Source of the DNA: a virus
Lineage: Duplodnaviria > Heunggongvirae > Uroviricota > Caudoviricetes
Length of the DNA: 34,603 nucleotides
Virus record (IMG/VR): IMGVR_UViG_2541047739_000006
Reading direction: 5' to 3' (one strand)
In this document: positions 6,325 to 29,022 of the stretch, piece after piece
How the letters are laid out: every line of letters begins with the position of its first letter
How positions within the stretch are numbered: the stretch's first letter is position 1
Translations under genes and position numbers: made by a program
The notes under the pieces: generated by a model
What the model was told of the DNA's origin: nothing
Seen by the model: only the letters and a program-made list of their open reading frames with translations
Databases searched by the model: none

Positions 6325-6961
6325 GTTGGAGTCATTACCGACGCGCCGAGCGTCTTTTTTTATGTCGTAGGTCTGACTCACCCATTTTTTGGGCGTTGGT
6401 GTATAATCCAGCGCCTTTGTCAATCAATGGTGGCTCAGGCGGGGGCTTCTTCGGAAGCGCCGGTATCCTTCAGAGCCGGTTACGCCAACCCTGTCTGGGC
6501 TACCACCAGCGAAATTGGCGTTTCCGGTGGTAGCGTAACCTGCTATCTGAAGGAGGCTGCCACATGCTGGCTACTACCCCTACCCAAAAACCGCAATTTA
6601 TCTGGATTATCGCCGCAGTTCGCCGCGATTGCCCGACAATTACCGCCAAAATTCATCATATTGCTGCCGAGTCTGAACGCGATGCTCGCCGTTCTCTGGT
6701 GCGCGATCACGTCTGCTTTTTTGCTGGTCGTATCCGCATGGAGGTGGCACATGATTAAAACCTACGATGTGCATATGGATCCCCTCGAACGCACAAGCCA
6801 GATCATCACACTGACAGAAGTGATTAACGACATTCTGGTGAGCAACTCTCCCTCACGAGACGAAAGGCTGAAGGCGTTACTCGCGATATTGGATCTCGCC
6901 GTTCGTGACGTTCATTTCCTGCTGGAAGGTGGCGAAATGCCAGGAAAAACGGGGGCAACCA

Positions 6962-8581: not shown

Positions 8582-8945
8582 AAATGCAGAAATGGCGCTT
8601 AGCTCCGCAATCGGAGAGCAGGTGGCAAAGATTGCTGGTGCTGTGTGGATTCATAACCTTCATTCTACTGGTGAAGAGAAAATGGCAATTCAGACGCCAG
8701 AGGGACGCACCATTACTACATCTCTGAAGCCGTCAGATGTTTGTGATCTGATTTGCGCATTCATGTACCCAGCAATGAGGACTGTCCACGGCGATAAGTG
8801 GAAACTTGCGACAACCGCTGAATTTGATATGTGGCTAAACAATGATGGCATGCTGACTGATTACGGAATAACCAAGTGGCAGATGCTGGTTAGCCATATC
8901 GCAAACGCTATAGACCACGTGGGGTACGGTGATGCGAAACATTGA
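8574..8945 (+). CDS. hypothetical protein
   Basis: 123-aa ORF overlapping both neighbours by a few bases. Confidence 0.6.
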   Translation: MRENAEMALSSAIGEQVAKIAGAVWIHNLHSTGEEKMAIQTPEGRTITTSLKPSDVCDLICAFMYPAMRTVHGDKWKLATTAEFDMWLNNDGMLTDYGITKWQMLVSHIANAIDHVGYGDAKH

Positions 8946-11688
8946 TCTTATCCGTCAGGTTATCAGTGCGTCTGAAAACAACTGGCCTCATGTGCTGGGC
9001 TGCCTGAACATAAATGTCCCTGACTCTCCGCGCCGTCATGCTCCCTGCCCTGCATGTGGGGGCAAAGATCGATTCCGGTTCGATGACAACGGGCGCGGTA
9101 GCTTCATCTGTAATCAGTGCGGCGCTGGTGATGGGCTGGATTTAATTAAACGCGTAAATAACTGCGACACAACAGAGGCGGCGCTTCTTGCCGCTGATGT
9201 TCTGGGTATTGATTACCGGACAACGGAAACACCAGAAGCCACCAGCCAGAAACGGGAACAACTGGAAACCGAGCGCCAGCGACGCGAACAGGAGCGCCTG
9301 AAAAGGGCAGAGAAGGACGAACAACAAAGACGGGATACGTTTTCCCGTCAGTTTGATGACATGCGCAGAAAGGCTGTAAACGGCAAATCTGATTATCTGG
9401 TTGCGAAAGGGGTAGGTGATTTTACATTCCCCGTGTTGCCCGATGGATCTCTGTTGCTGGCGCTGGTGGATAAATCCGGCGCAGTCACAGCAGCACAGAC
9501 TATTACATCACATGGTGAAAAAAGACTCCTGACAGGTTCAGCAAAGCGGGGGGCATATCACGCCATAAACGCGCCAGAAACAACACAGAGCATCTTAATC
9601 GCAGAAGGGCTGGCAACGGCATTATCTGCCCATTTAATTCGTCCAGAGGCGCTGACAGTGGCGGCGATTGATGCCGGGAACCTGTTATATGTCGCCCAGG
9701 TACTGCGGGATAAATTTCCTTCAGCACAAATCATCATTGCTGCGGATAACGACCACAGCGAAGGAAGACAAAACACGGGGAGAATAGCAGCAGAAAAAGC
9801 AGCTTTATCTGTTTCTGGATGGGTGGCATTACCCCCGACAGATCACAAAGCAGACTGGAATGATTACCACCAAAAACACGGCATTAAATGCGCCACAGAA
9901 GCGTTCAATAAGTCAATGTACCAACCACAGGGTAATGGCGTGAAACATGAGCCACAGACCATTGAGGGAAGCGATTTTAAGGTTATGGATACCGACCCAC
10001 TGAAACCAAGAATAGAAAGCCGCGAGGATGGTATTTATTGGGTATCTCCGAGAGCTGACAGCCAGAGTGGAGAAATCATCAATAACGAAAGCTGGTTATG
10101 TTCTCCGTTAAGCGTTATCGGTACTGGCAGAGACGATAAAGACCAGTATCTCATTCTTCGCTGGCTGTCGTTTGGTTCTGAAACGCCGACAACCGCTGCC
10201 ATTCCACTGGCTGATATTGGTGAACGTGAAGGATGGCGCACACTTAAAGCTGGTGGGGTAAATGTCACGACCAAAAGCAGCCTCAGAGCAATACTGGCAG
10301 ACTGGCTACAACGCAGTGGCTCTCGTGAATTGTGGCGTGTTGCTCATGCCACTGGCTGGCAATGCGGAGCGTACATCATGCCTGATGGGGAAATCATCGG
10401 AACACCTGAAAATCCTGTGCTGTTCAGCGGGAGAAGCTCAGCCGCAGCCGGATATACCGTCTCAGGGAGCGCGAAAAGCTGGCGTGATAACGTGGCGCGT
10501 CTGGCCTTTGGTAACTATTCAATGATGACCGGGATCGGCGCAGCACTGGCAGCGCCATTGATTGGGCTGGTGGGCGCTGACGGGTTCGGCATTCATTTCT
10601 ATGAGCAGTCGAGCGCAGGTAAGACCACCACGGCAAACGTGGCGAGCAGCTTATACGGCAACCCTGATTTACTGCGGCTGACGTGGTACGGAACCGCGCT
10701 GGGGCTGGCAAATGAGGCCGCCGCCCACAATGACGGACTAATGCCGCTTGATGAAGTTGGTCAGGGCGCTGATCCTGTCAGCGTTTCACAGTCTGCCTAT
10801 GCGTTATTTAACGGTGTAGGGAAACTGCAAGGCGCTAAAGATGGTGGAAACCGGGATCTAAAACGCTGGCGTACAGTGGCAATCAGCACCGGAGAAATGG
10901 ATTTAGAAACATTTATCGCTACTTCCGGGCGAAAAACCAAAGCCGGGCAACTGGTGCGACTGCTGAATATTCCGTTGAGTAAAGCAGTACGCTTTCACGA
11001 TTACCAGAACGGAAAACAGCACGCAGACGCACTGAAAGACGCTTACCAGCATCACCACGGCGCGTCCGGGCGTGAGTGGATTAAATGGCTGGCAGACCAC
11101 CAGCAACAGGCTATTAAAACCGTTCGTGACTGCGAAAGCAGATGGAGAAGCCTGATCCCATCCGATTATGGTGAGCAGGTTCACCGTGTAGCCGCGCGAT
11201 TTGCCATTCTGGAGGCCGCATTGTTGTTAGGCGAGGTTGTAACAGGCTGGGATGCTCAGACATGCCGTGATGCGATACAGCACAGCTATAACGCATGGTT
11301 GCGCGAGTTCGGCACAGGTAACAAAGAGCATCAGCAGATTATTGAACAAACGGAGGCATTTCTTAATGCCTATGGGCTTAGCCGTTTTGCACCATTTCCA
11401 TACAGCCCGGCAGATTTGCCCATCAAAGATTTAGCCGGATACCGTCAGCGTGGAGAACATGACGAAAGCCCAATGATTTTCTACACATTCCCGGCCACAT
11501 TTGAAAAGGAGATCGCATGTGGTTTCAACGCAAAACAGTTTGCTGAAGTGTTGAAAAAAGCCGGGATGCTAACCCCACCAAACAGCGGTCGTGGATACCA
11601 AAGAAAATCACCACGTATTCAGGGACGACAAATAAACGTTTATGTACTCAATTACCAGCCAGGAGATTATAACTCATCTGAAGAATGA
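8929..11688 (+). CDS. P4 alpha-like primase-helicase (Zn-ribbon + TOPRIM primase + P-loop NTPase)
   Basis: 919-aa ORF; CPACGG...CNQCG zinc ribbon; TOPRIM-like ILIAEGLATALSA ... AADNDHSEG; Walker A SSAGKTT and Walker B LMPLDEVG; immediately followed by iterons. Confidence 0.88.
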   Translation: MMRNIDLIRQVISASENNWPHVLGCLNINVPDSPRRHAPCPACGGKDRFRFDDNGRGSFICNQCGAGDGLDLIKRVNNCDTTEAALLAADVLGIDYRTTETPEATSQKREQLETERQRREQERLKRAEKDEQQRRDTFSRQFDDMRRKAVNGKSDYLVAKGVGDFTFPVLPDGSLLLALVDKSGAVTAAQTITSHGEKRLLTGSAKRGAYHAINAPETTQSILIAEGLATALSAHLIRPEALTVAAIDAGNLLYVAQVLRDKFPSAQIIIAADNDHSEGRQNTGRIAAEKAALSVSGWVALPPTDHKADWNDYHQKHGIKCATEAFNKSMYQPQGNGVKHEPQTIEGSDFKVMDTDPLKPRIESREDGIYWVSPRADSQSGEIINNESWLCSPLSVIGTGRDDKDQYLILRWLSFGSETPTTAAIPLADIGEREGWRTLKAGGVNVTTKSSLRAILADWLQRSGSRELWRVAHATGWQCGAYIMPDGEIIGTPENPVLFSGRSSAAAGYTVSGSAKSWRDNVARLAFGNYSMMTGIGAALAAPLIGLVGADGFGIHFYEQSSAGKTTTANVASSLYGNPDLLRLTWYGTALGLANEAAAHNDGLMPLDEVGQGADPVSVSQSAYALFNGVGKLQGAKDGGNRDLKRWRTVAISTGEMDLETFIATSGRKTKAGQLVRLLNIPLSKAVRFHDYQNGKQHADALKDAYQHHHGASGREWIKWLADHQQQAIKTVRDCESRWRSLIPSDYGEQVHRVAARFAILEAALLLGEVVTGWDAQTCRDAIQHSYNAWLREFGTGNKEHQQIIEQTEAFLNAYGLSRFAPFPYSPADLPIKDLAGYRQRGEHDESPMIFYTFPATFEKEIACGFNAKQFAEVLKKAGMLTPPNSGRGYQRKSPRIQGRQINVYVLNYQPGDYNSSEE

Positions 11689-11706: not shown

Positions 11707-11828
11707 AAAAGGTGTTGGTTCAGTTGGTTCAGTTGGTTCAATTTGTAAAGAGTATTGTTTTATAAGGATTTTATTCTTTTTATTGAACCAACACTGAACC
11801 AACAACACGGTATTTTGAACCAACACAA
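11707..11828. repeat. ori-like iteron module: 3 direct GTTGGTTCA, AT-rich spacer, 3 inverted TGAACCAAC
   Basis: Read directly: AAAAGGTGTTGGTTCAGTTGGTTCAGTTGGTTCAATTTGTAAAGA ... TTGAACCAACACTGAACCAACAACAC ... TTGAACCAACAC, directly 3' of the primase gene; same architecture as the P4 ori with type I iterons. Confidence 0.6.
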
Positions 11829-12143
11829 TGTGACTGAATTGATGCGCACAACACCTGGCTGGCATCAGAGAGTGTTTTACGAGACTTTCGTAAAATCCTG
11901 TGTACAAGGGCGTGACGTTTTTGAAAGTGAGCACTACGAAATTTTCGTAGTTCAGAAAACAGCCTCTGAGAAGTTGTTATGCCTGTTCAGCAAACCATCC
12001 GCATAGCTGATCGCGAATCAAATTACCAATGGAGCCAGAAGCAAGGGCAGAACTGAAAAGCGCCTGCCGTGAAGAGTAATGCGACACCATAAATATAGTT
12101 TTTAGAGTCCATAAAAAACCTGTCAAAACCTGACACACAGAAC

Positions 12144-12178
12144 GATGCCACCAGCTACTGAGCGGTGGCATTTTTTTG
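12144..12178 (+). terminator. intrinsic terminator
   Basis: GATGCCACC-AGCTACTGAGC-GGTGGCATC stem-loop followed by TTTTTTT. Confidence 0.6.
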
Positions 12179-12272
12179 TGCTATTTGTTTCATATTTTGC
12201 AATTACGATGATGAATATTGCGATTTGTGAAACTATAATAACTGTTGTTTTATACAGTTCTAAGGGGGCGTT

Positions 12273-12434
12273 ATGGCTATTTCAGTAAAGCCGGTATTGA
12301 TAAGTGAGAAGCAAATGGAAGCGATAAAGAAAATTCAGGAAGAGCAGCGTAAAAAATCAGGAATTGGAGTAGCGCCAACTCTGCATGAAATTGCACGAGG
12401 GTTAATAGATAAGGCGCTGGCAGGCTGTATGTGA
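12273..12434 (+). CDS. small ribbon-helix-helix-like protein (53 aa)
   Basis: AGGGGG Shine-Dalgarno 6 nt before ATG; beta-strand/helix/G-turn/helix pattern (VKPVLISEKQMEAIKKI...G...TLHEIARGLIDKAL); below the ORF-track length cutoff. Confidence 0.45.
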   Translation: MAISVKPVLISEKQMEAIKKIQEEQRKKSGIGVAPTLHEIARGLIDKALAGCM

Positions 12435-12450
12435 AAATGGATGGCATCGC

Positions 12451-12912
12451 ATGGAACTAAAATTTATTGATAACCCTGTGCGATTACAGGCCTTTCTTAA
12501 CGAGCCAGGCAATACCGAAAATATTGTTGAGCCGGGGCACACGTACTACATCAAGCCTGATGCGGTATATCTCGGCATCTACGAAGGATTAGTGCTGGCT
12601 GGCGTTCATGAAGTGCGTAACTTCTGGCATAGCGTTGTTGAATGCCATGCGGTGTACGACCCCGGATTCCGTGGTGAATATGCACTGCAAGGACATCGAT
12701 TATTCTGCAAATGGCTTCTCGAAAACTCACCATTCCTTAACAGCATTACCATGGTTCCTGACACCACGAAATACGGACGGGCAATTATCCGTTTGCTTGG
12801 CGCTACCCGTGTTGGTCATCTTGATGATGCTTATATCAGATGTGGTAAACCCGTCGGCGTAACGCTTTATCAGTTAACTCGGCAACAATATAAGGAATTC
12901 AGCGAATGTTAA
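12451..12912 (+). CDS. hypothetical protein (possible P22 gp14-like; low confidence)
   Basis: 153-aa ORF, first of a same-strand run of four genes whose sizes (153/225/249+/701 aa) parallel P22 genes 14-7-20-16 as I recall them; similarity not verified. Confidence 0.65.
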   Translation: MELKFIDNPVRLQAFLNEPGNTENIVEPGHTYYIKPDAVYLGIYEGLVLAGVHEVRNFWHSVVECHAVYDPGFRGEYALQGHRLFCKWLLENSPFLNSITMVPDTTKYGRAIIRLLGATRVGHLDDAYIRCGKPVGVTLYQLTRQQYKEFSEC

Positions 12913-13583
12913 TTACCCATATAGCTTATAAACATCTCAATCGTGCCGTATACGAAAAAGGCGGTGATGGTGGTGCCTCTAAAGCTCAGGCGAAGGCCCA
13001 GCAGCAGGCAATTGATTTGCAGCGCGAGCAGTGGAATACGGTGATGAATAATCTCAAGCCGTATGCAGAAGTCGGATTGCCTGCTTTACAACAACTACAA
13101 GGACTGATGACTCTGGAAGGGCAGAATAAAGCCGCGAATGATTTCTTTGGTTCTGGTTTATATAAAACACAGGCAGATCAGGCCCGTTATCAGAACCTTG
13201 TCTCAGCAGAAGCTACCGGGGGGCTTGGCTCAACAGCTACCAGTAACCAGTTATCTTCCATTGCGCCCATGCTTTATAACAATTGGCTCAGTGGGCAAAT
13301 GCAAAATTATGGAAACCTGCTAAATGTCGGGATGAATGCGGCATCAGGGCAGGCAACAGCAGGGCAAAACTACGCCAATAATACCGGACAACTCTTGCAG
13401 GGGCTTGGCGCTATTCGTGCAGGTCAGGCGCAGCAGCCATCCAGTCTTGCGCGTGGTATTGGTGGGGCGGCATCAGGCGCTTTAGCGGGTGCGCAACTTG
13501 GTTCCGTTGTTCCGGGTATAGGTAATGTCGCCGGGGCTATTGGTGGTGGGCTTATTGGTCTTGTTGGGGGGCTTGGATTCTAA
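12906..13583 (+). CDS. Q/G-rich hypothetical protein with glycine-zipper C-terminus (possible phage ejection/internal protein)
   Basis: 225-aa ORF overlapping the upstream stop; C-terminus GGAASGALAGAQLGSVVPGIGNVAGAIGGGLIGLVGGLGF. Confidence 0.65.
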   Translation: MLITHIAYKHLNRAVYEKGGDGGASKAQAKAQQQAIDLQREQWNTVMNNLKPYAEVGLPALQQLQGLMTLEGQNKAANDFFGSGLYKTQADQARYQNLVSAEATGGLGSTATSNQLSSIAPMLYNNWLSGQMQNYGNLLNVGMNAASGQATAGQNYANNTGQLLQGLGAIRAGQAQQPSSLARGIGGAASGALAGAQLGSVVPGIGNVAGAIGGGLIGLVGGLGF

Positions 13584-14327
13584 TGGCGACATGGCAACTT
13601 GGCGGGCTGCCTAGCATGGCACCGCAAAATGATAATGCTCCTCGTTCTTCCGTTCCTCAGCCTGTGCAGTATCAGCAGCAGCCAAACGTAGGTTTAATGG
13701 CGCTACAGGGGCTAAGAGGCGTTGCTGAGATTAATCAGCAGGCACGTCAACAACAGCGTAAAGCAGAGTTTCAGAAAGCATATGCCGGGGCTTTTGAGTC
13801 TGGAGACAGAAACAAAATGCGCAGTCTTATTTCTGAGTATCCAGAAGAATTTGAAAGCGTTCAGAAAGGGATGGGCTTTATTGATGACGACCAGAGAAAT
13901 TCTATTGGTCATCTTGCGACTAGTGCTCAAATCGCATCTTCGCTCGGAACTGGGGCATTTGGAAAATTCATAGCAGATAACGAAGATGAAATGCGTCGTT
14001 TGGGAATTTCTCCTGAGTCTGTTGCCGAAATGCATGTTAATGATCCACAGGGATTCCAGCGGCTTGCTGGTAGTATGGCACTGTTTTCTCTCGGTCATGA
14101 GAAGTACTTCGATATCAAAGATCGAATGGAAGGTCGGGATATTGAGCGTGGCAAGTTGGCAGAGACGATCCGCAGCAATCAAGCCGGAGAAGCACTTCAG
14201 GCGAGAGGGCAGGATATTAGCCGAGCAAATGCGTTAACGTCAGCATATGCACCAACAGCCGCAATGCAGAATTACAATCAATACGCGCAAATGTTAAAGG
14301 CGGATCCAGAGGGGGCTGCGGCATTTG
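13583..14327 (+). pseudogene. hypothetical phage-like protein, 3'-truncated by IS1
   Basis: ORF starts at the upstream stop (ATGG overlap) and runs into the IS1 end at 14328; the apparent stop lies inside IS1. Confidence 0.6.
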
Positions 14328-14342
14328 GGTAATGACTCCAAC

Positions 14343-14846
14343 TTATTGATAGTGTTTTATGTTCAGATAATGCCCGATGACTTTGTCATGCAGCTCCACC
14401 GATTTTGAGAACGACAGCGACTTCCGTCCCAGCCGTGCCAGGTGCTGCCTCAGATTCAGGTTATGCCGCTCAATTCGCTGCGTATATCGCTTGCTGATTA
14501 CGTGCAGCTTTCCCTTCAGGCGGGATTCATACAGCGGCCAGCCATCCGTCATCCATATCACCACGTCAAAGGGTGACAGCAGGCTCATAAGACGCCCCAG
14601 CGTCGCCATAGTGCGTTCACCGAATACGTGCGCAACAACCGTCTTCCGGAGCCTGTCATACGCGTAAAACAGCCAGCGCTGGCGCGATTTAGCCCCGACA
14701 TAGCCCCACTGTTCGTCCATTTCCGCGCAGACGATGACGTCACTGCCCGGCTGTATGCGCGAGGTTACCGACTGCGGCCTGAGTTTTTTAAGTGACGTAA
14801 AATCGTGTTGAGGCCAACGCCCATAATGCGGGCTGTTGCCCGGCAT
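14343..14846 (-). CDS. insB: IS1 InsB
   Basis: Identical 167-aa InsB as at 5821..6324. Confidence 0.95.
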
Positions 14847-15040
14847 CCAACGCCATTCATGGCCATATCAATGATTTTCTGGTGCGTACCGGGTTGAGAA
14901 GCGGTGTAAGTGAACTGCAGTTGCCATGTTTTACGGCAGTGAGAGCAGAGATAGCGCTGATGTCCGGCGGTGCTTTTGCCGTTACGCACCACCCCGTCAG
15001 TAGCTGAACAGGAGGGACAGCTGATAGAAACAGAAGCCAC
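14765..15040 (-). CDS. insA: IS1 InsA
   Basis: Identical 91-aa InsA as at 5627..5902. Confidence 0.95.
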
Positions 15041-15104
15041 TGGAGCACCTCAAAAACACCATCATACACTAAATCAGTAAGTTGGCAGCATCACCGGGTG
15101 ATTA

Positions 15105-17210
15105 ATGGCTAAAGCATGGAAAGATGTTATCGCCTCTCCACAGTATCAGGCGTTAGCACCAGAACAAAAAGCGCAGGCTCAGGAGCAATACTTCAATGAA
15201 GTCGTGGCCCCGCAAGCCGGAGAAAGTGTAGCGCAGGCTAAGCAGGCTTTTTATGCTGCCTATCCACTACCATCAACGAATGAAATAGACCGATCCCAAT
15301 CAGCAACTCAAAATATTCAACATACATCATCTGATAATTCTCTTGCGTCAGGGTATGCAAAGTTAGCTACTCAGCAAAGAGAGGGGCTTGAGCGTTCAGC
15401 AGAACAGGGAGCCAGTCTTGGGGCTGCGATGCGCGATGCTATAACAGGCGAAAGCCGAATGACTCCAGAGATGGAGAGACTGCAAAATGTCGACCTTGCC
15501 CCAGAGTTAACCTCACTCAGCATGGGTGCTCTAAAAGCTCGATGGTCTCAACTTTTCGGCTCTGACGCATCTCAGGAAAAGATTCTTCAGAGCATGGGAG
15601 CGAAATTAAGGCAGGATGAGAAGGGTAACACTATCGTTTCCCTGCCATCCGGTGATTATGCTCTGAACAAGCCGGGTTTATCGCCGCAAGACGTGGCATC
15701 GTTTCTGGCTAATGCGCTGGCGTTTACACCAGCGGGCAGGGCTGGAACGGTGCTTGGTGCCATAGGAAAATCAGCAGCTACAGATTTAGCACTACAGGGA
15801 GCCACCAGCCTTGCTGGTGGAGAAGATATTGATCCGTTACAAACGGTAATTTCTGCTGGCATTGGTGGTATTGGTAAGGGGCTGGAAAATACAGCGAGTG
15901 CGGTTTCGAGGGCTGTTCGTGGTGATATGTCGCCTGAAGCAAAGGCTGCTGTCAACTTTGCATCGGAAAGAAATCTGCCGTTAATGACCAGTGACATGCT
16001 GAAAGATAAAACCTTTATGCAGAGTCAGGCTCAGACATTAGGCGAAAGAGTTCCTTTTTTTGGAACCGGTAAGAATCGGCTGAATCAACAACAAGCACGA
16101 GAAAATTTAGTCAGAACATTTAGCGATGGTCTGGGTGGCATTTCTGATAAACAGCTTTATGAATCTGCGACTAAAGGGCAACAAAAATTCATTGAGGCAG
16201 CAGGAAAGCGATATAACCGCATAATTGACGCTATGGGGGATACCCCTGTCGATCTCTCAAACACGGTAAAAGCTATCGACAATCAGATTGCCGTGTTAAG
16301 CCGCCCGGGCAAATCTCAGGATAGAGCCGCGGTAAAAGTCTTGCAGCAATTTAAAGACGATATCACCAGCGGACCAAATGACCTGCGTCTGGCGAGGGAA
16401 AACAGAACCGATCTTCGAAAGCGATTTATGGCGTCATCTGACACTGTTGATAAAGATACGCTCCAGAAAGCCAGCGATATTATCTACAAGGCATATACGG
16501 CGGATATGAAAAAAGCCGTAGCCAAAAATCTTGGAGCAGACGAAGCCATTAATATGGCAAGGGTTGATCGGTCATGGTCTAAATTCAATGACATGATGGG
16601 AAGAACGCGCGTTCAAAAGGCAATAGCCAGCGGTAAGGCCACGCCTGAGGATGTAACAAAACTCGTTTTTAGCCAAAGCCCATCAGAACGTTCTCAGCTT
16701 TACAGGCTTCTGGATGACAATGGTAGGCAAAACGCACGAGCAGCCATAGTTCAGAATGCTGTAGATAAGGCGACTGATCCGTCTGGAAATATCAGTGTTG
16801 AGAAGTTTATTAATGCGTTACACCGGAACAGGAAGCAATCAGCAACTTTCTTTAAAGGCGTACATGGAAAGGAACTGGACGGCGTTATTAAATACCTCAA
16901 CGATACAAGACACGCGGCAAAAGCGAACGTTCAAAACTTAAATGGTCAGCAGCTTTATGGATTGTTAGTTGGTGGTGGCATCATAAACGCAGCAGTATTA
17001 GCGGGGATGCTAAAAACGGCTGCGTTTGTTGTTCCTGCTGCTGGTGCCGTAGGCGGAGCAGCGAAGGCATACGAAAGCCCTGTTATACGAAATGCCTTGT
17101 TACGTCTGGCAAATACGCCAAAAGGTAGCACAGCATATGACAGAGCGATCAGTACGGTCACACAATCGCTCACCAGAGTCGCACAGGCATCACAAAAAGA
17201 AGCTCAATAA
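15105..17210 (+). CDS. large A/Q/G-rich hypothetical protein (possible phage ejection / DNA-transfer protein)
   Basis: 701-aa ORF starting 10 nt after the IS1 end (in-frame TGA 2 codons upstream); low-complexity coiled-coil-like N-terminus and hydrophobic glycine-rich C-terminal segment. Confidence 0.65.
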   Translation: MAKAWKDVIASPQYQALAPEQKAQAQEQYFNEVVAPQAGESVAQAKQAFYAAYPLPSTNEIDRSQSATQNIQHTSSDNSLASGYAKLATQQREGLERSAEQGASLGAAMRDAITGESRMTPEMERLQNVDLAPELTSLSMGALKARWSQLFGSDASQEKILQSMGAKLRQDEKGNTIVSLPSGDYALNKPGLSPQDVASFLANALAFTPAGRAGTVLGAIGKSAATDLALQGATSLAGGEDIDPLQTVISAGIGGIGKGLENTASAVSRAVRGDMSPEAKAAVNFASERNLPLMTSDMLKDKTFMQSQAQTLGERVPFFGTGKNRLNQQQARENLVRTFSDGLGGISDKQLYESATKGQQKFIEAAGKRYNRIIDAMGDTPVDLSNTVKAIDNQIAVLSRPGKSQDRAAVKVLQQFKDDITSGPNDLRLARENRTDLRKRFMASSDTVDKDTLQKASDIIYKAYTADMKKAVAKNLGADEAINMARVDRSWSKFNDMMGRTRVQKAIASGKATPEDVTKLVFSQSPSERSQLYRLLDDNGRQNARAAIVQNAVDKATDPSGNISVEKFINALHRNRKQSATFFKGVHGKELDGVIKYLNDTRHAAKANVQNLNGQQLYGLLVGGGIINAAVLAGMLKTAAFVVPAAGAVGGAAKAYESPVIRNALLRLANTPKGSTAYDRAISTVTQSLTRVAQASQKEAQ

Positions 17211-17229
17211 CTGGTTAGCCATGGATGGC

Positions 17230-17844
17230 TTAGATATCTCTGCTGTCTCCATTAGGAAATAAAAGATAATATGGATTTGCCTTTCTTGCTCTCCTTGCTT
17301 CACCCGGATACCTGTTAGTCAGTAGCTTGCATAATGAGCAGAGAACAACACTCAAGAAAATTCCGAATGAGAAGATCAATATCTCACCAAAAATCAATGG
17401 CGATATTAAATTTTCAGGATTTAATGATAAGTCAATGTTAAAAACATATTGAGCAATACCAGTAAGTATCAATAATATAATCCCTATGGAATACATTGCT
17501 GTTTCCCAAACATCAGACAGTCTATTTTTGAATTGTTCGCTGGAGTAGTAGTTTGTTATAAAGTCAGAAAAATCACTCTCATATGCATCATCTTTAGGTG
17601 ATGTTAGAAATCCTCTGTCTCTCCATACCTTCTCCCAATTAGTCGATTCTTTTTTTAAGGAAAAATAAATATGTATTCCCAAAAGGATAGCCAAAATTGG
17701 TGTTAGCTCTAAAAAATAGAATGTTATGGAATAAATAATACTGCCATGTTCAAACTCATCTGGGACTATCATGTATGCACAAAAATAAATTGAAAAGTAC
17801 ACCATGCAGATAGTTAGCAATTCTTTAGTATCTTTTCTGCTCAC
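17230..17844 (-). CDS. multi-pass membrane protein, AT-rich, unknown function
   Basis: 204-aa ORF with several hydrophobic segments (ICMVYFSIYFCAYMIV, LTPILAILLGIHIYF, IGIILLILTGIAQYVF, IFGEILIFSFGIFLSVVLC); composition sharply more AT-rich than its neighbours. Confidence 0.6.
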   Translation of the reverse strand: MSRKDTKELLTICMVYFSIYFCAYMIVPDEFEHGSIIYSITFYFLELTPILAILLGIHIYFSLKKESTNWEKVWRDRGFLTSPKDDAYESDFSDFITNYYSSEQFKNRLSDVWETAMYSIGIILLILTGIAQYVFNIDLSLNPENLISPLIFGEILIFSFGIFLSVVLCSLCKLLTNRYPGEARRARKANPYYLLFPNGDSRDI

Positions 17845-17957
17845 ACCAACCCCCTTTAGCGTTGTTTAGAATGGCAATCATCATATATCCAAGACATGGC
17901 ATTTGGTACATAGCTTGGGTCGGGATTTCAAGTCCGCTCCCAGTTGATGGGGCCGTT

Positions 17958-18342
17958 ACAGTACGCGCATATCCGCTTTATGTGAAACAGGAAGATTTTT
18001 CTGATATCACTGCCACAGCAAAACACCAATTTCGTGACCAGTACGCGCGCGAGGGGTATCAGTTGCAAAATTTTTTGCAACTGCGTCCGACCAGTACGCA
18101 CACGATGGCGGGGGATACCATAAAACTGTTCTCTACATGAGACAGAGTGGTGGTGATGTGTTGATTATCGGCGTATATGCGCACAGGACGCGCTATGACG
18201 ATGTTTTATGCGGGTACACCAATCACATGTATCTGGTGTGATAAATCGCGTTACATGACCTCTCATGTTGTGCTGGTGGTTATCACGACTTTCTGAATCT
18301 GGCCTTTGCCTGATATTTTGCGACAAGTACGCGCGCGTAGCA
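17958..18342. repeat. repeat family with alternating-CG palindromic core (CAGTACGCGC at 17958; GACCAGTACGCGCGCGA at 18036; GACCAGTACGCACACGA at 18089; GACAAGTACGCGCGCGTAGCA at 18322) plus an 11-bp inverted repeat CAGTTGCAAAA-tt-TTTTGCAACTG at 18060..18083
   Basis: Read directly; a fifth copy lies at 19712..19734. Confidence 0.6.
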
Positions 18343-18365
18343 TCGACAGCATACACATTGGATAT

Positions 18366-18587
18366 TCATTTTGTGACCAATGCGATAAGTAGCGGGATAA
18401 GAATTGATAAAATCAACAGGCCGATGATCCACTTTTGATTTTCACTGGCCTTATCTCTATTTTCATCAATCTTATCAATAATTCGACGCTCCAATCCGTG
18501 CATATCACCGCGAATGGCAATCATCTCATTGCGAACATCAGGGAAGTGGTTGGCTTGATGTTCAATGTGTGGCGTTCTGCCTTTCAT
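18366..18587 (-). CDS. small tail-anchored membrane protein (coiled-coil N-terminus + C-terminal TM)
   Basis: 73-aa ORF; charged N-terminal region then WIIGLLILSILIPLLIALV; resembles XhlA/holin-like small proteins, not verified. Confidence 0.5.
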   Translation of the reverse strand: MKGRTPHIEHQANHFPDVRNEMIAIRGDMHGLERRIIDKIDENRDKASENQKWIIGLLILSILIPLLIALVTK

Positions 18588-18666
18588 ATCTGATCCTCAC
18601 CTATCGTCACTACCTGCTGGTGTATAAAGGTATTGGCCCAAGCAACTTTCCAATGGGCACTCATGT

Positions 18667-19122
18667 TTATACGCTGACCTTACAATCAATCACTGCTTTT
18701 AGCTTTTCAGCATTGCTTCCCTGACGCTTCCACGCGCTGTAAATATCTTTATCCCACGCTTTACCAGCTTTTGTTTGATAGCCTGCTTCATTGATCCGTT
18801 CAGCTATCACACGCCCATTATCAAATCCCTGTTGGATGGTATCGGCAATGATCTTTATAACTGCCGTTTCGTTATATGGTTTTGGTGGGATGTTCGGCTT
18901 TCCGGCAATAAGCGACGCAGCGGCTTTTTCCATGCGCTCCACCAGCCCAAGCATTCGTGAATCAATAGACTTTTCCGGCTGCCCCAGCTTCATGCGAATC
19001 GCATCAACAAGCCAGGAGGTTTTATCTCCTCCAGAAGCGAGAACAGACCGATTAAACTCATCCTGCAATTCAGATGGGATGCGGAACGCGACCAGATTAG
19101 ATTTGCTCATTGCAAAGACCAT
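18667..19122 (-). CDS. ribbon-helix-helix (Arc/MetJ-type) domain protein with C-terminal extension
   Basis: 151-aa ORF; N-terminus NLVAFRIPSELQDEFNRSVLASGGDKTSWLVDAIRMKL fits the beta-strand/helix/G-turn/helix RHH pattern (compare P22 Arc/Mnt). Confidence 0.6.
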   Translation of the reverse strand: MVFAMSKSNLVAFRIPSELQDEFNRSVLASGGDKTSWLVDAIRMKLGQPEKSIDSRMLGLVERMEKAAASLIAGKPNIPPKPYNETAVIKIIADTIQQGFDNGRVIAERINEAGYQTKAGKAWDKDIYSAWKRQGSNAEKLKAVIDCKVSV

Positions 19123-19220
19123 ATCAGTGAGTAATATCCATACAGTATACCACTGTATAACACTGTTATACGCTCAAATATCAGCCAGAAAATAACGGAC
19201 CAATCACAAATCTATCGCTG

Positions 19221-19352
19221 TGTTGTTGGTTCAGAGCTGGGCTGTGTTGGTTCAAAATGAGTTGATGTTGGTTCAATATTTCAGAAAAAACACAATAAAA
19301 ACAACAATCTTTACAAATTGAACCAACTGAACCAACTGAACCAACACCTTTT
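19221..19352. repeat. crr-like second iteron module; inverted copy of the ori module
   Basis: The reverse complement begins with the same 43 nt as the ori module (AAAAGGTGTTGGTTCAGTTGGTTCAGTTGGTTCAATTTGTAAAGA), followed by an AT-rich spacer and three TGAACCAAC copies. Confidence 0.55.
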
Positions 19353-19381: not shown

Positions 19382-19663
19382 ATGATAAGGGACAGGAAAG
19401 CTGAAGAGCTGGAGTCAAAAGGGCTATACCGGAGAGCTGCCGCACGATGGATGGAAGTCATGCTGTTATGCACCGAGGACGATGATCGGGAATGGATAAA
19501 GCGCCGCCGTGAAACGTGTCTGGAGAACGTGAAGCGCCCGCCCGTGAAGGTTGAGGAATTTGGCGACCTGCATAAAGCTGTTACCGAAACGCAACACCGC
19601 ATGGGGATAGCGCAACCGAACGGTAACGCCTTCCGGTTAAATGGCGGCAAGAGGCAAAGGTAG
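19382..19663 (+). CDS. PerC-family transcriptional activator homolog
   Basis: 93-aa ORF; N-terminus MIRDRKAEELESKGLYRRAAARWMEVML matches the PerC/Pch family signature as I recall it. Confidence 0.6.
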   Translation: MIRDRKAEELESKGLYRRAAARWMEVMLLCTEDDDREWIKRRRETCLENVKRPPVKVEEFGDLHKAVTETQHRMGIAQPNGNAFRLNGGKRQR

Positions 19664-19960
19664 ACCACCAGAGGGAAATCATCCTCTGGCTGGCGGTTTC
19701 TGGTATTTCGGGACAAGTACGCGCGCGCGTAGCACCCAATCGGTGAGGAAATAGCGGCGACCTGAATGGTCAAAATCACAACGCAGCTATCCCCGTAAGC
19801 AGCGCTTAACGGAATAGCAGTAACCTGAATCCAGTGGGGAGGGGGTAGTCAAATCTCTACAGCCCTGACTATCCGGGACTGCCCGCCCCATCGTTTTTTT
19901 ATACCCGCGAAAAATGAAATTTAATCCGGGCGTGTTTCATTCTTCCAGAGGGTATGACGT

Positions 19961-22142: not shown

Positions 22143-22310
22143 AAATCTCCAGAACGCAACAGGACGCATTCTAACGCTATTTTCATTGCTTGGTATAGGG
22201 ATGTATAGGTGATGTGTGTTTAATGCGTCTGTGCGCTTGTTTTGTGCCTTATTTTGCATTTTCATAATGCAGAAGAGAACACGGAAAACCTTAAAATTAA
22301 TTATTGGGGT

Positions 22311-22472
22311 ATTTAAGGGTATTTTCAGGTGATTTAAGGGTATTAAACTTGATTTAATTGATTAAAATATAAACAGATAGTTGTGTATCTTATTGATTTA
22401 TAAGGTTATTTTTAAATAAAGGTAAATAAAAAATAAATAGCCATAAATAGCTATAAATACATCTAAATACCT
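22311..22472. repeat. direct repeats ATTTAAGGGTATT x2 (22311, 22332) and four tandem ~10-bp units TAAATAsC (22434..22472)
   Basis: Read directly in AT-rich non-coding DNA; helical-turn periodicity. Confidence 0.55.
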
Positions 22473-22610
22473 ATATCCCTTCCCTTATGGCTAGATTGCG
22501 AGAGGTGCTTAACGCGATTTTCAGCGCCCCCCGATCTGGAAAATCCAGAATCCCCAAATATCAGCAAGGAATTTTCTTGCGTAATCAACATCGTTTTTAC
22601 CTATTAAATC

Positions 22611-23925
22611 ATTACACAGAAAGCCTTTCTGTAATGTCTCTCACTAAACTTTCACTAAACACGAGAATGATCGGTTTTATGTCGGATCAGATGCTAGAAA
22701 CAGCACCACGTCTCACAAGGACTGTAAGCGATGAAACCAGTGTTTATGCGGGTGCAGGTCAAAATATAGGCCAAAATCAATTTAACATAATAAACGTAAT
22801 ATGCACTAAGGAACACATAGAACGCCTTGAGTTGATGTATCAGGGGAAAAATGATGGATTTTTTACGTAGGAGCACGAGAGGGCTTCTGTTGACTTTTGT
22901 ATGCTATGAAACATAATTAAAGGTTTTTTTGTTTTTATTGTGTGATGTAGTGGATTACACAGGGGAATAGATTAAATGGTGTTCTGTTTATACAGGTTTA
23001 TTTGTTAGATCAACAATTTGGCATTTCTAAACAGATGTTTGAACGTTGCCAAATGTCTTGACAACACAAGAAAAGGGCTTGCTATGCCACGCATTACACG
23101 AAATAAGGCTGTAAAAACAAAATAAATTTTAAAATTTGCACAAACGAGAAAACTCGTTAAGAAACAAGCAGAACAATTTTTAGCCAACAATTTCTGATGG
23201 TGCTCTGTAGGCCGCACTACACAAGGATTTGCGAAAGTGATGTAAAAGTGAAGAAAGTAAGAATTGCACTTTTAAGCTACTTTTCATTGAATTTTTAGTA
23301 TGGAATTACACAGGAATAAGTTAGGGATATTCTATGATTTACACAGGGAATATAGGGGATTATGGCACACACATAGAAAGGCATTACACAGAGTGAGTGC
23401 TATGTGATGATTGGTAGTAACGGTAGGTCATAGTGAGCTAGGGGGTAGGTCACTGTGAACTACAATAAGACTATTAATAAAACTATATTAGATTATTAAT
23501 TAGATCATAATAATAATATTCTTTATATCTATATATATGATCTTTTGCCTTCCGGCGTTAGCTTCACTCTCTGGCAAGCAGCCTTACTCCGCTACCTTTC
23601 GGGCTTCGTGGCTGGCCCGTTCCGCTCACACCGAAAGCAAAGCGTTACTTTCTTCGTGTAACTTCGTTGGCGGTAACGCCCACGAAGAAATCTATTGCGC
23701 TGTGCGCAGTAAGAGTAATCACCTAACCAATCATACTGATTGCTTATGTGTTAACTCTCTCTAACTCTTAATTACCCTCCTACATTTAATAACTCTGTTA
23801 TTCTCTGTAGTTGTGTAATTACTCGAAGAGAGAGCGGCTAAAGCTCAATTACACTCTGCTTTCCTCGTGTAATTTCACTAAGCCTCAATACAATTTCACT
23901 TCCTACATTCTGTAGTCGTGTAATT
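22611..23925. repeat. dispersed iteron-like motif ATTACACAGG(G)AATA: about six forward copies (22611, 22954, 23093, 23305, 23337, 23383) then about four inverted copies (about 23655, 23813, 23866, 23916)
   Basis: Read directly; forward copies cluster upstream and inverted copies downstream of a GC-rich hairpin island. Confidence 0.55.
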
Positions 23926-24561
23926 GTTTTCGGTGGAAAAGCCAGAGGCGACACCGAAAGAGAATTCTGATCTTATTAATCTTATCTATCTTAGTTAATC
24001 TTCTTACTTATCTTACTTACTTTATCTACTTTATTATTAATAATAGCTTTATAAGCTCTCTGTGTAGCTCTCTGACGCAAGAAACAGCATTCAGGAAGGG
24101 AATCACCTTAGAAAAGGTGTTCTTTGCGTCATAATGTGTTTTATGAAGGATTCAGAGGTGTTTCATAACAGGAATGTATAGAGAATACTTTAGGTAATTA
24201 AAAATAAGGGGTCTAAATGCTTCTCTAACAGCATTAAGCAGGGTAGGGAATGGAAACGCATTGCCTACATATAATAAACTCACTACAGGGCTTTACAGGG
24301 CGTTTTATAAAGTGACTCTCTGTTTTATATCTACAATCACCTTTTCATATACCTAACAAATACAAAATAAGCCCCTTAAATAAGCCTCTGGCGAGCTAAA
24401 CAGACATTACATAAGAGAATGTATTGCTTTTATCAAAACTTCGTTAGAACGCGTTTTAGAGCGTTTTAGCGGATAATGAAGAATAGCACTACACAGAAGA
24501 GCACGAATTGCCAAGACAAATTATAACATGCTGAAAAAGATCGATTTTTTCGAAAAGGGTA

Positions 24562-24590
24562 TTGACAAATGTTTCTTTATATGTAATAAT
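24562..24590 (+). promoter_or_regulatory. sigma70-like promoter (TTGACA, about 17 bp, AATAAT) preceded by palindrome TTTTCGAAAA
   Basis: Consensus -35 at 24562..24567; AT-rich -10 at about 24585; about 115 nt upstream of the first gene of the operon. Confidence 0.35.
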
Positions 24591-24703
24591 AGGTATTAGA
24601 GGGACAGAAAAACATTCTTCTCTAAATAATCAAAATCAATGCACTTTGAAGCCGTCAGGCTTGCAAGGTGTTTTATTTCTTTTAACTGAATAAGGAGTTT
24701 TTT

Positions 24704-24892
24704 ATGAAATGGTTTACACCGGAGCACGTCGTAAAGGCATTTAAAAAAGGTGAGCTTACACGCCACCAAATAGTAATGAATCGTAATATGGCAAGGAGTC
24801 GAGGTTATCCAGAGCGAGCAGCTTGCTTCAATGAAGCACTCAAGATTATTGATGAACTAAGAAAAAATGAAAAAGAATCTGAAACAGAGTAA
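24704..24892 (+). CDS. hypothetical small protein
   Basis: 62-aa ORF with AAGGAG 7 nt upstream of ATG. Confidence 0.55.
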   Translation: MKWFTPEHVVKAFKKGELTRHQIVMNRNMARSRGYPERAACFNEALKIIDELRKNEKESETE

Positions 24893-24911
24893 AGAAGAGA
24901 AGGAGAAAACT

Positions 24912-25082
24912 ATGAGCGAAGCTACAGAAAAGAAAAGACAACCACGCACTTGCTTTCATATTCCTGATGAAGTATTTCAGGTGTTGTTTAAAGAAGCCAG
25001 AAGTAAACGTATCACTGTTACAGATTACATTCTTGATATGTTGAAAAGAGAGGCTGAAACACTCTCAAATAAAAGCAAGTGA
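24912..25082 (+). CDS. small putative DNA-binding protein (56 aa)
   Basis: AAGGAG 7 nt before ATG 24912; the listed 24867 start overlaps the upstream gene. Confidence 0.5.
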   Translation: MSEATEKKRQPRTCFHIPDEVFQVLFKEARSKRITVTDYILDMLKREAETLSNKSK

Positions 25083-25135
25083 TTTTTATCACCATAGTAG
25101 CGCCATAGAGCGTGATTACATCAAGGAGATTTTTA

Positions 25136-25828
25136 ATGATTAACCAACTAACTTTTACAAAACACTATGACACGTTTGATAATATATCAAAGATTTATTC
25201 TGATAAATTCCCTCAAGGAAAAGATTTAGATCTATTACATATTGTGCTTTATTTTCGATTCCTTAGTTATCAGGAAAACAACCTTAATTGTTATGAAAGT
25301 CACGAAACATTAGCTAAGATTTTTAAGTCTTCACCATCAACAATTAAACGTAAGATAAACGATCTTAAAGAGATGGGATTATTAGAAACATCCCCACATC
25401 CTGATCCGTATATTTCATCTTTGATTTACAATGCTCTCCCTCTCACAGATGCACATATTACTCCCCCAGGAGAATCATCACTCTCTGATCTTTCTGAGGC
25501 AGAAGAAGCACAGGAACAACCTAAAGGCCATAAACAGCCTTCTTTTGATGTTCTTGATGATGATTGGGATACGCCTTTACCCTGGGAGACGGAAGAAACA
25601 CCTGTTTCATCAAGTGAAAAGGTAGCTAATGATAATGAGGAGGATGTGTTAGAGAATTTTGCCTCTCTTATCATCCAGGAGAAACACAAAAGAACAGGAG
25701 GGGCATCATTTATAGAATTTGCAAATTCACTAGCTTGTAGATACGGGCTAAAACGACCAAATGGTATTGAGGCATATTTTTCTAAGCATTACCCAAATGT
25801 ATACGAAGACTTTGATATTCCCTTTTAA
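25136..25828 (+). CDS. replication-initiator-like protein (wHTH N-domain, acidic linker)
   Basis: AGGAG before ATG 25136; ETLAKIFKSSPSTIKRKINDLKEMGLLE helix-turn-helix; acidic stretch DLSEAEEAQEQ...DDDWDTPLPWETEE. Confidence 0.6.
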   Translation: MINQLTFTKHYDTFDNISKIYSDKFPQGKDLDLLHIVLYFRFLSYQENNLNCYESHETLAKIFKSSPSTIKRKINDLKEMGLLETSPHPDPYISSLIYNALPLTDAHITPPGESSLSDLSEAEEAQEQPKGHKQPSFDVLDDDWDTPLPWETEETPVSSSEKVANDNEEDVLENFASLIIQEKHKRTGGASFIEFANSLACRYGLKRPNGIEAYFSKHYPNVYEDFDIPF

Positions 25829-25844
25829 AAAGTAAGGAGGACTA

Positions 25845-26123
25845 TTGATACAGTATTTAATAAAAAGCAAAGTAGACAGAATTCAGTGTAACGACACAGG
25901 AAAACGCATCTACGAAACGCTTGCTTACCTCTATAAAGGAAAGCCAACACCGCTAAAATATAGCGATGTGTTACATCGAGCAGGTTGCTCTGAGTCAGGT
26001 TTAAAATTCTGGCTGAAACAGCTATCAAATTTCGGTGTTATTGAAATGAAAGAGCTGTCTTTCTCTACATTTAATCTCAAAAGACTAGATAAAGAAATAG
26101 AATTCATCTATTCCACTCTCTAA
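25845..26123 (+). CDS. hypothetical small wHTH-like protein
   Basis: 92-aa ORF with AGGAGG upstream. Confidence 0.55.
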   Translation: MIQYLIKSKVDRIQCNDTGKRIYETLAYLYKGKPTPLKYSDVLHRAGCSESGLKFWLKQLSNFGVIEMKELSFSTFNLKRLDKEIEFIYSTL

Positions 26124-26255
26124 AATCTCTCTATGTAATTAAAATATAAAAGGAAAACATTATTATGATAGTAGCTATGTATTGGTTATTGTTCTTTCTC
26201 ACGTTAGAAGCATATTTCGGGGTGTTTTCCTTTAAAAGAAAAGGAAAAGTAAATT

Positions 26256-26666
26256 ATGGCAAAAAGAAAAAACAACGTTGTTAAGAAAATCGGTGATTCA
26301 GCTTCTCTTCTAAGTAAACCTAAATCTATTCTAAAACGTAAAGACTTTAAAGAGCTAGTTACGCTCACCAAGCATAATAGCGCCCCTGGCGAATGGAAAA
26401 CAGAGATCATAGAACATTCTCCCTCTGTGCCTTGTGGAGATGAATATATCGCCTTACAAGAAATCTTATCTTCAACACCTGGCGTGTTCTGGAAACCTAA
26501 AAAAAGAAAAGAGTATATCGTTGATAGCTCTGATTTACGCAAATACCAGATTTTAGGATTTGAAGATTATAATCACTACGTTGGTTATCTCGCCACAAAT
26601 GGCCTAAATAATTTAGTTCCTGAATTCCAGATTTTAGATAATGCAGATCACTATGGAGACTTTTAA
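26256..26666 (+). CDS. hypothetical protein with basic N-terminus
   Basis: 136-aa ORF starting MAKRKNNVVKKIG. Confidence 0.6.
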   Translation: MAKRKNNVVKKIGDSASLLSKPKSILKRKDFKELVTLTKHNSAPGEWKTEIIEHSPSVPCGDEYIALQEILSSTPGVFWKPKKRKEYIVDSSDLRKYQILGFEDYNHYVGYLATNGLNNLVPEFQILDNADHYGDF

Positions 26667-26667
26667 T

Positions 26668-27006
26668 ATGAACAAAAACACGTATGACACAATTTACTCA
26701 CTAATTAATTATTATGAGGATGATTACCTCCTGCCTTTAAACCGCGCTGAACTTGAAGCATACAAAGAAAACACGCCAGCGGCACTAAATGAGGCGTTTA
26801 AACACTGGGATTTAGCTGTGAATGCCTTTGAGCACCTCTCTAAGCGTGTAGAGATGCTCTGTAAGCGCGAAAACGCATACCTGACAGCCGATCAGGTATG
26901 GGAATTATCAAACTGGATAGAAGATATTGAATCTGATGTTCGCTATGTGGGAGATGGACTTGTTGAACTAGCGCAACGCTTAGGCGCTACTATCACAGAA
27001 GAATAA
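26668..27006 (+). CDS. hypothetical protein (113 aa)
   Basis: ATG 26668 right after the upstream stop, GGAG upstream; the listed 26641 start overlaps. Confidence 0.55.
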   Translation: MNKNTYDTIYSLINYYEDDYLLPLNRAELEAYKENTPAALNEAFKHWDLAVNAFEHLSKRVEMLCKRENAYLTADQVWELSNWIEDIESDVRYVGDGLVELAQRLGATITEE

Positions 27007-27256
27007 AAAAAGCAACAAAAAAGTTGTAAAATATCTTGGCATTCCATCTATTGTATGTTAATATAATTATATAGGGGTGATTATTTTTCCTTTATTGGTT
27101 CGATATTAAAAATTCTTCCTGTCATTAAAGGGGAGTAAAATCTCCGCTCCCCGCTTCTTCTCCTCCTTAAGTAAATACTGTGCCATTATACCTCTTTGTT
27201 ATGCATACATCTTGGAGTATGCATAACATAGGGTAATTACATAGGTATGAGTTAAT

Positions 27257-27288
27257 AAAAGGCGGCTTTAAATGCTGCCTTTTATTTT
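27257..27288 (+). terminator. intrinsic terminator between the early and structural operons
   Basis: AAAGGCGGC-TTTAAAT-GCTGCCTTT stem-loop followed by TATTTTG. Confidence 0.45.
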
Positions 27289-27350
27289 GCCCGTTATACA
27301 ACTTAAAAGTTGTATTTCTTACTTTAAACAAGGTAACAAGGTTTATATAA

Positions 27351-27922: not shown

Positions 27923-27940
27923 TAAAAGGAATAATAATAA

Positions 27941-28969: not shown

Positions 28970-28987
28970 TATTTTAACGTGTAATAG

Positions 28988-29022
28988 AGGCGTGGCGTGA
29001 ATAACACGCTTCGCCTTTTTTT
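28988..29022 (+). terminator. intrinsic terminator
   Basis: AGGCG ... inner hairpin GCGTG-AATAA-CACGC ... CGCCT followed by TTTTTTT. Confidence 0.6.

Follow-up and report, generated by a model that had tools for sequence, protein, structure and literature searches.

Described Origins of Phage Satellites

The origins in phage-inducible chromosomal islands (PICIs) and in the pathogenicity islands of Staphylococcus aureus (SaPIs) are defined by opposed iterons that lie to either side of an A+T-rich region, located 3' of rep (PMC6092414, PMC9371898). Qiao et al. described at least two opposed iterons per side, attributed the reading of the iterons to a winged helix in the C-terminal domain of Rep, and proposed that two hexamers load at the A+T region (PMC9371898). 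In the plan published for the Gram-negative PICIs, int, alpA, and pri-rep are co-directional, with the origin on the 3' side of the replication gene and with perC among the accessory genes (PMC6092414). PICI origins have so far been described as a single iteron block around an A+T-rich region. The subject here is a 34,603-nucleotide stretch of viral DNA (IMG/VR record IMGVR_UViG_2541047739_000006, the whole of which is called the window below), which carries a PICI-like phage satellite of E. coli that has integrated at tRNA-Thr. In this satellite, an iteron module directly 3' of the pri-rep gene recurs in inverted orientation beyond a set of accessory genes. The two modules are probably the mirror-image halves of a PICI-type satellite origin, held 7.4 kb apart by these accessory genes, with Pri-Rep acting at both.

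Phage P4 provides another basis for comparison. The alpha protein of P4 binds both ori and crr, both of which are needed, and there is looping between these sites. In the P4 annotation, crr lies directly 3' of the alpha gene and ori lies 4.5 kb away, and the units at these sites are opposed iterons around an A-rich spacer. The original prediction took the two modules of the window to be analogues of ori and crr bracketing a cargo segment.

Two Mirror-Image Iteron Modules

Exact copies of the iteron GTTGGTTCA number 12 in the 34.6-kb window as against 0.34 expected, with a maximum of two in 100 shuffles. All 12 fall in two modules of ~120 bp, at 11714-11824 and 19225-19345, and one-mismatch copies outside the modules occur in the window at chance level only. 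Module A (11707..11824), which begins 26 nt past the pri-rep stop codon (11688), has three contiguous iterons at 11714-11740 on the + strand, a spacer at 11741-11783, and inverted, helically phased iterons at 11784, 11795, and 11816. Module B (19225..19352) is the reverse complement of module A, with phased iterons at 19225, 19246, and 19267 (+), a spacer at 19276-19318, three inverted contiguous iterons at 19319-19345, and an outer flank, ACCTTTT; no strand is assigned to either module as a whole. The recurrence of the module as a reverse complement, which had been noted beforehand, is confirmed by the distribution of all 12 iterons in the two mirror modules.

The outer arms of the modules (11707-11761 and 19298-19352) are each 55 nt long and are 96% complementary. 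An identity of the first 43 nt had been claimed, and the arms are indeed identical here, although a count on the sequence extends this to the first 45 nt (11707-11751). The inner halves of the modules have diverged, with a 10-nt indel and with iteron spacings of 11/21 in A and 21/21 in B, and the six iterons of each module are all exact despite this divergence. The spacers are 43 nt in both modules and their A+T content is 84% in A and 81% in B; the spacer of A includes the 10th least stable 40-nt stretch of the window, and that of B is within the least stable 2.2%. The nine least stable (most A+T-rich) 40-nt stretches all lie in ~22300-29100, downstream of the satellite. A spacer motif, AATTTGTAAAGA, is common to modules A and B in the E. 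coli lineage, and module B was kept in 6/6 of the E. coli-lineage loci checked, among them a 12-kb circular record described below.

Conservation is concentrated in the iterons. Over 45 A-type and 20 B-type modules, all of them unique, the majority base had a frequency of 0.996 (A) and 0.956 (B) at the iteron columns, as against 0.66 and 0.74 at the other (spacer) columns, a contrast inflated by the need for some exact iterons for a module to enter the count. The module pair is real, conserved, and under selection.

A further element, the central motif CCTGGCTGGC (11854..11863, + strand), lies 30 nt inward of module A and is preceded by a T-rich run. On a strict pattern, the central motif, with its CTGGCTGG centre, is found at the same offset in 17 of 26 relatives of the abutted type (see below), whatever their iteron class, and its position in relatives is +159 to +192 from the pri-rep stop codon. 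Since the motif is unchanged across iteron classes, its reader is not the Pri-Rep specificity segment considered below; a role as a primase start (it has two CTG triplets) or as a host-factor site is speculation. The core of the motif is mirrored 36 nt inward of module B as CAGCCAG (19182..19188, read as CTGGCTG on the minus strand). This mirrored CTGGCTG is present in the E. coli lineage only and, with one lineage, it could be due to chance, for which the estimate is ~0.5% for orientation and distance together.

On the outer side of module B, many relatives have conserved the flank ACCTTTTTGCTTATATA upstream of their next gene. A scan for sigma-70-type promoters around both modules found none, in or beside B included, which leaves a promoter that overlaps the iterons of B unsupported. 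Operator-like sequences occur nearby: the palindrome TACAGTATACCACTGTA at 19139-19156, between module B and the neighbouring minus-strand open reading frame (ORF), and, in relatives from Pantoea, Rosenbergiella, and Cedecea (L021, L022, L027, and L061), a doubled TGTCTTAC inward of module B.

Abutted, Split, and Single Modules in Relatives

The relatives were 77 loci from the Enterobacterales encoding Pri-Rep relatives of 51-99% identity, in which a repeated 8-mer was sought 3' of the gene. At least 25 of ~60 of these loci have both modules no more than ~350 bp from the stop codon. Such abutted modules follow one layout, a quasi-palindromic block of 250-300 bp that runs from a contiguous array over an A+T spacer, a phased inverted array, the conserved CTGGCTGG centre, more iterons, and a second spacer to a contiguous array in inverted orientation. 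In 11 other loci, the modules are split, with 1.1-9.0 kb between them, and are always inverted with their contiguous arrays outermost. In about nine loci, module A is the only one present within 10 kb, and directly after it comes a gene for an SSB-like protein or perC (as read from the translation); these relatives keep the layout of module A seen in the window. A scan of viral contigs for triple iterons gave 61 further loci, of which ~30 are abutted and four are split inside a single locus by 7.4-10.4 kb, together with one contig split by 8.9 kb. The gap between the modules ranges from ~40 bp to >10 kb across the Pri-Rep family.

In the Pri-Rep tree, the split and abutted states are interleaved and the deepest branches are all abutted; the sister of the window is an Enterobacter element of the abutted type, and of two Lonsdalea elements one is split and the other abutted. 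Given their abutment in relatives, the modules are best read as halves of a mirror-symmetric origin that are separated here by inserted genes.

Iteron Variants and the C-Terminus of Pri-Rep

The pri-rep gene (8929..11688, + strand) encodes a 919-aa protein in which a Zn-ribbon/TOPRIM primase is fused to a DUF927 helicase-initiator (Pfam Zn_Ribbon_Prim, Toprim_3, and DUF927). Residues 8-362 have 33% identity to the primase of P4 alpha (E 3e-41), and beyond residue 362 there is no similarity to the helicase and DNA-binding part of alpha. Residues 404-814 match PDB 8tch, deposited as 'Pathogenicity island protein', on which a literature search found nothing relevant. A PDB sequence search with the C-terminal 319 residues gave no match.

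Nine iteron variants were found in relatives (GTTGGTTC, TGTTGTCT, ACGGGTTA, TCGGTTCA, GTCGGTTC, GGTCGGTT, GTCGGGTA, GTGGGTTA, and TGGGATAA), and both modules of any one element always carry one shared variant. The part of Pri-Rep that follows the iteron class best is residues 873-912, where identity is 0.64 within classes and 0.44 between them. Outside the C-terminus, the association between protein and iteron class in sliding windows is weak because one iteron class dominates the sample. The change from GTTGGTTC to TGTTGTCT is accompanied by a discrete 6-residue swap in the C-terminus at residues ~890-898, YQRKS-PRI to YQGRV--RE (alignment columns), in elements otherwise near-identical in Pri-Rep. 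Residues ~885-905 are a candidate iteron-specificity segment. The sharing of variants supports the idea that both modules are sites for the same initiator, and the covariation of iteron class with the C-terminus is the one support for the prediction that the cognate Rep would bind the iterons and drive autonomous replication. In two loci (L002 and L062), private spacer variants are common to the A and B modules of the same element; these few cases hint at gene conversion between A and B.

A Probable Mirror-Duplicated Origin of the PICI Type

How does the locus compare with the published PICI and SaPI origins? Both modules have three opposed iterons on each side of an A+T region (84% and 81% A+T), in line with the minimum of two per side described. 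Module A is directly 3' of pri-rep; module B is 7.5 kb off in the window and occupies the corresponding position in the abutted relatives. The likeness to the PICI and SaPI systems covers an origin directly 3' of pri-rep, short opposed iterons around an A+T region, and perC as an accessory gene. It extends to the initiator-helicase, for which a solved pathogenicity-island protein is a relative; the iterons are read by the C-terminal domain in SaPI Reps. The origin of EcCICFT073, which was validated experimentally with a temperature-sensitive vector, also has outward-facing inverted pairs of contiguous iterons, which are 190 nt apart there, although the primase of Pri-Rep is P4-alpha-like whereas EcCICFT073 has an unrelated primase of 584 aa. 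The difference from the published origin, with its two iteron sets and one A+T region, is that here the unit is doubled in mirror orientation with 7.4 kb between the copies. This mirror-duplicated, cargo-split origin is a new architectural form of a known PICI-type origin, and the mirror duplication is shown by the Pri-Rep family.

From the anatomy, conservation, covariation, and homology, which were computed, we infer binding, melting, and firing at either module as follows. An origin unit would consist of a contiguous iteron array, a meltable spacer of ~43 bp, and an opposed, helically phased array. Pri-Rep would bind the opposed arrays of a unit via its C-terminal segment and would then melt the A+T spacer. 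By analogy with the SaPI Reps, its SaPI-Rep-like DUF927 helicase may load itself onto the DNA, after which the TOPRIM primase would prime synthesis. Module A alone is probably sufficient, as it is next to pri-rep and matches the single-module origins of relatives, while module B would be a second loading or pairing site. Its role could be that of a second firing origin, of a P4-style looping partner, or of a site for copy control or perC regulation. The interval between the units would have become a slot for accessory genes in the E. coli lineage.

Several observations weigh against the idea of a split origin with Pri-Rep acting at both halves. The relatives with A only imply that module B is not essential to the Pri-Rep family, and some abutted relatives carry a G+C-rich spacer in module B, which implies that B is not a melting site everywhere. 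A synthetic cargo-free junction compared with E. coli genomes gave no abutted copy of matching flanks that would define the insertion junction; the best match, ET729, is a deletion derivative that lacks most of pri-rep. Finally, an AlphaFold2 model of Pri-Rep residues 601-919, made with 27 homologues, had a predicted local distance difference test score (pLDDT) of 40 and was unusable, which leaves a winged-helix fold unsupported.

Alternative Explanations for the Paired Modules

The resemblance to P4 on which the original prediction was based is real as regards architecture, given the position of the P4 crr 3' of alpha and the opposed iterons around an A-rich spacer in the P4 units. Both systems have a homologous Zn-ribbon/TOPRIM domain in a multifunctional primase-helicase, a C4/CI-type antisense RNA, one iteron cluster directly 3' of the gene with a second kilobases away, and iterons of 8-9 bp whose contiguous copies are spaced at 9-10 bp and are opposed across an A-rich spacer. 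The sharing of iterons in all nine variants and the covariation with the C-terminus also support that part of the original prediction in which one initiator would bind at both modules. An obligate two-site origin of the P4 type, in which one module is ori, the other is a crr-like site in cis, and Pri-Rep loops between the two, both being needed, could draw on this resemblance and on the presence of the iteron of the initiator in both modules. It is, however, unlikely. Only residues 8-362 of Pri-Rep align with alpha, and the rest, which corresponds to DUF927 and 8tch, has no detectable similarity in its helicase or DNA-binding parts; the iteron is GTTGGTTCA here and the type I iteron TGTTCACC in P4; and the crr of P4 consists of two direct 120-bp repeats instead of one inverted copy. 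Moreover, the second site is usually adjacent or absent in the relatives of Pri-Rep: most have abutted modules in an origin of ~300 bp, and several carry A alone, which argues against a family-wide need for two sites in cis and shows that a distal second site is no requirement of the family. An ori with a distal crr is not the ground state of the family, and the system is not of the P4 ori/crr type, even though part of the comparison with P4 survives.

It is possible, if rather doubtful, that module B is not an origin at all but an auxiliary control site, where bound Pri-Rep either pairs with A so as to limit copy number (handcuffing) or controls, as at an operator, perC and the divergent ribbon-helix-helix-like ORF. 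In plasmids P1 and F, incC/incA and incB/incC, respectively, are auxiliary iteron clusters, and handcuffing pairs such clusters. As in those plasmids, two clusters of initiator sites bracket a stretch of DNA and one of them is dispensable for initiation; there, however, it is the rep gene that is bracketed and the auxiliary cluster is without the full layout of an origin, whereas here B is a complete mirror unit. The intergenic position of B between the minus-strand ORF and perC, the conservation of its outer flank ACCTTTTTGCTTATATA upstream of the next gene, its dispensability in some relatives and G+C-rich spacer in others, and the apparent 12-kb circle, where copy control would matter, all fit such a role. 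On the other hand, the promoter scan around B was negative for sigma-70-type promoters, and in this lineage B keeps a full origin layout, with a spacer that is 81% A+T and that has the AATTTGTAAAGA motif also seen in A; this exceeds what an operator needs. A control function is compatible with the split-origin reading rather than exclusive of it.

A different question is whether the inverted repeats are substrates for recombination, either as transposon ends or as a switch for inversion or excision of the cargo, as the original prediction envisaged. Arms of 55 nt and 96% identity do flank 7.4 kb, and the private spacer variants of L002 and L062 hint at gene conversion. An inversion was sought with a query in which the end of pri-rep and arm A were joined to the reverse complement of the DNA to the left of arm B; at a query coverage of at least 80%, the junction was found in 0/553 matching E. 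coli genomes, with no full-length match. Every locus in viral contigs and in genomes keeps the ejection genes or other cargo collinear with pri-rep. Of what is expected of a DNA-inversion switch, neither the two orientations in these loci nor, in the cargo ORFs scanned, an invertase was found. As to a transposon, the scanned cargo ORFs have no recombinase or transposase domain except in a secondary IS1, the flanks, read by eye, show no target-site duplication or flanking direct repeat, the modules occur without the cargo in many relatives instead of travelling with it, and the cargo variation in E. coli has its breaks inside the region and not at the modules. This explanation is very unlikely. 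It is also very improbable that a duplication has left module B behind as a relic without function. Some relatives do manage with A alone, but the six iterons of B are exact while the spacers have diverged, and B has been kept across genera with its iteron changing together with that of A.

The Satellite

E. coli chromosomal islands located at tRNA-Thr beside proA share 99% identity with the window. The genes of the satellite run in the order int, a regulator of the AlpA type, an AntA/B antirepressor, DUF4222, ash, small ORFs, pri-rep, module A, cargo, module B, and perC, and this order matches the published Gram-negative PICI plan (PMC6092414). The integrase gene (int, 1610-2824, + strand) adjoins the tRNA-Thr gene (1369-1444), downstream of proA, which corresponds to the left-end integrase at a specific attachment site by which PICIs are recognised (Fillol-Salom et al. 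2018). The AlpA regulator and the mostly unidirectional, rightward genes, which are also used for this purpose, are present by annotation: WP_000035054.1 is annotated as 'AlpA family transcriptional regulator' in a relative, and every gene from int through pri-rep is on the + strand. When attR was sought as a repeat of the 3' end of the tRNA, no match of 12 nt or more was found within the window. At the other end of the satellite, the gene for a PerC-family regulator (19382..19663, + strand; Pfam PerC, E 3.7e-30) starts 36 nt downstream of the contiguous iterons of module B; perC has been published as one of the accessory genes that PICIs of E. coli carry (PMC6092414).

Upstream of pri-rep, the early region contains a C4 antisense RNA (Rfam RF01695, 79.9 bits) at 6423-6510. 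C4 RNA is the P1/P4 CI-type RNA immunity element, present here in a PICI-like satellite.

A 12,152-bp circular 'plasmid' record, NZ_CP148430.1 (the L002 locus mentioned above), is in fact a satellite of this kind: it contains int, antA/B, pri-rep, the two modules 1.9 kb apart, and perC, which suggests an excised or episomal form. Copies of the satellite also turn up in IMG/VR contigs. Together, these copies and the circular record are indirect hints of induction or packaging by a helper.

The Cargo between the Modules

The accessory region between the modules (11865..19181, no strand) was described with Pfam, PHROGs, and the RefSeq annotation of the 99%-identical locus. After a small ORF (~12273-12434), it contains four genes that by Pfam and PHROGs resemble those for the P22 proteins gp14 (12451-12912), gp7 (12906-13583), gp20 (13583-14327), and gp16 (15105-17210); in the phage records searched, the nearest match of the gp16-like protein has 67% identity. 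The gp20-like gene is truncated by IS1 (14328-15095, minus strand), which has replaced 667 bp of its 3' part; since the intact gene is 1422 nt in NZ_CP109924, the ejection cassette of the window is defective. IS1 is a secondary arrival, absent from relatives. Three minus-strand ORFs follow: a SieA-like ORF with a weak match (17230-17844), an ORF of 73 aa (~18364-18585), and an ORF beside module B (18667-19122), the N-terminus of which is ribbon-helix-helix-like by eye and which has only a weak match to an unnamed PHROG.

Among E. coli relatives, the cargo varies at three sub-slots, 11882-12023, 12422-18711, and 18343-18712, while the modules and their inner flanks are constant. In other strains, one of the sub-slots is occupied by an Abi gene or by an ImmA/IrrE pair, and some of the small variable cassettes are annotated as of the defence type. 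NZ_CP148430.1 is entirely without the ejection cassette. In other genera, the slot contains tape-measure proteins (904-1136 aa), SLT-domain proteins (584-600 aa), a baseplate-hub-like protein, SoFic, and a Beta/PD-Lambda-2-like protein; the delivery-type genes between the modules are at 14632-18042 in L022, 16198-18912 in L056, 14448-16250 in L021, and 16258-18012 in L061. The carriage of such helper-type genes fits the 'late gene capture' that has been published, though the bias of the cargo towards genome-delivery proteins is striking.

He et al. (2024, PMC11364771) placed the accessory region of PICIs 'adjacent to the pri gene', and Mageeney et al. (2023, PMC10111431) described how late genes of helpers are captured in clusters downstream of the replication zone. 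In the passages of these papers found by keyword, the position of the accessory region and the late-gene capture agree with the position of the cargo and with its P22-like ejection genes, and the same passages do not mention inverted origin modules around the accessory region. A tentative idea is that the paired origin units form a cargo bay embedded in the origin: as each unit would work alone, DNA could lodge between them with the replicon remaining viable, and the pairing of units by the initiator or gene conversion, within an element or between co-replicating elements, might cause helper late genes and defence cassettes to be captured and exchanged again and again. If this were true, satellites would carry their own helper-matched proteins for DNA delivery (ejection, tape-measure, and SLT-domain proteins).

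Independently of this idea, the mirror-duplicated unit with its variable gap ties to one structure two satellite features that had been reported separately, namely the region of accessory and defence genes beside pri and the capturing of late genes from helpers. The paired modules could help annotators to delimit the cargo slot, and the swap in the C-terminus that is paired with an iteron change offers a direct target for the engineering of specificity. The single, abutted, and split origins with their nine iteron variants are a natural series in which the use of iteron orientation and spacing by a helicase of the self-loading type can be tested.

Recurring motifs remain to be mentioned. The motif GACMAGTACGCGCGCG was considered as the remnant of a coding sequence and as a C4 RNA target, and neither reading fits. 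The motif (A)TTTYGNGACMAGTACGCGCGCG is present on the + strand in four copies (18024-18055, 18077-18108, 18310-18341, and 19700-19731) as against 0.01 expected; the copies lie outside intact ORFs and are not complementary to the C4 RNA, and relatives in other genera, such as Serratia and Enterobacter, have the motif as well. In E. coli relatives in which Abi or ImmA/IrrE cassettes replace the local ORF, similarity to the window stops 8-10 nt past the 18322 copy of (A)TTTYGNGACMAGTACGCGCGCG. The motif may correspond to the boundary of a cassette, to a promoter, or to a site of recombination.

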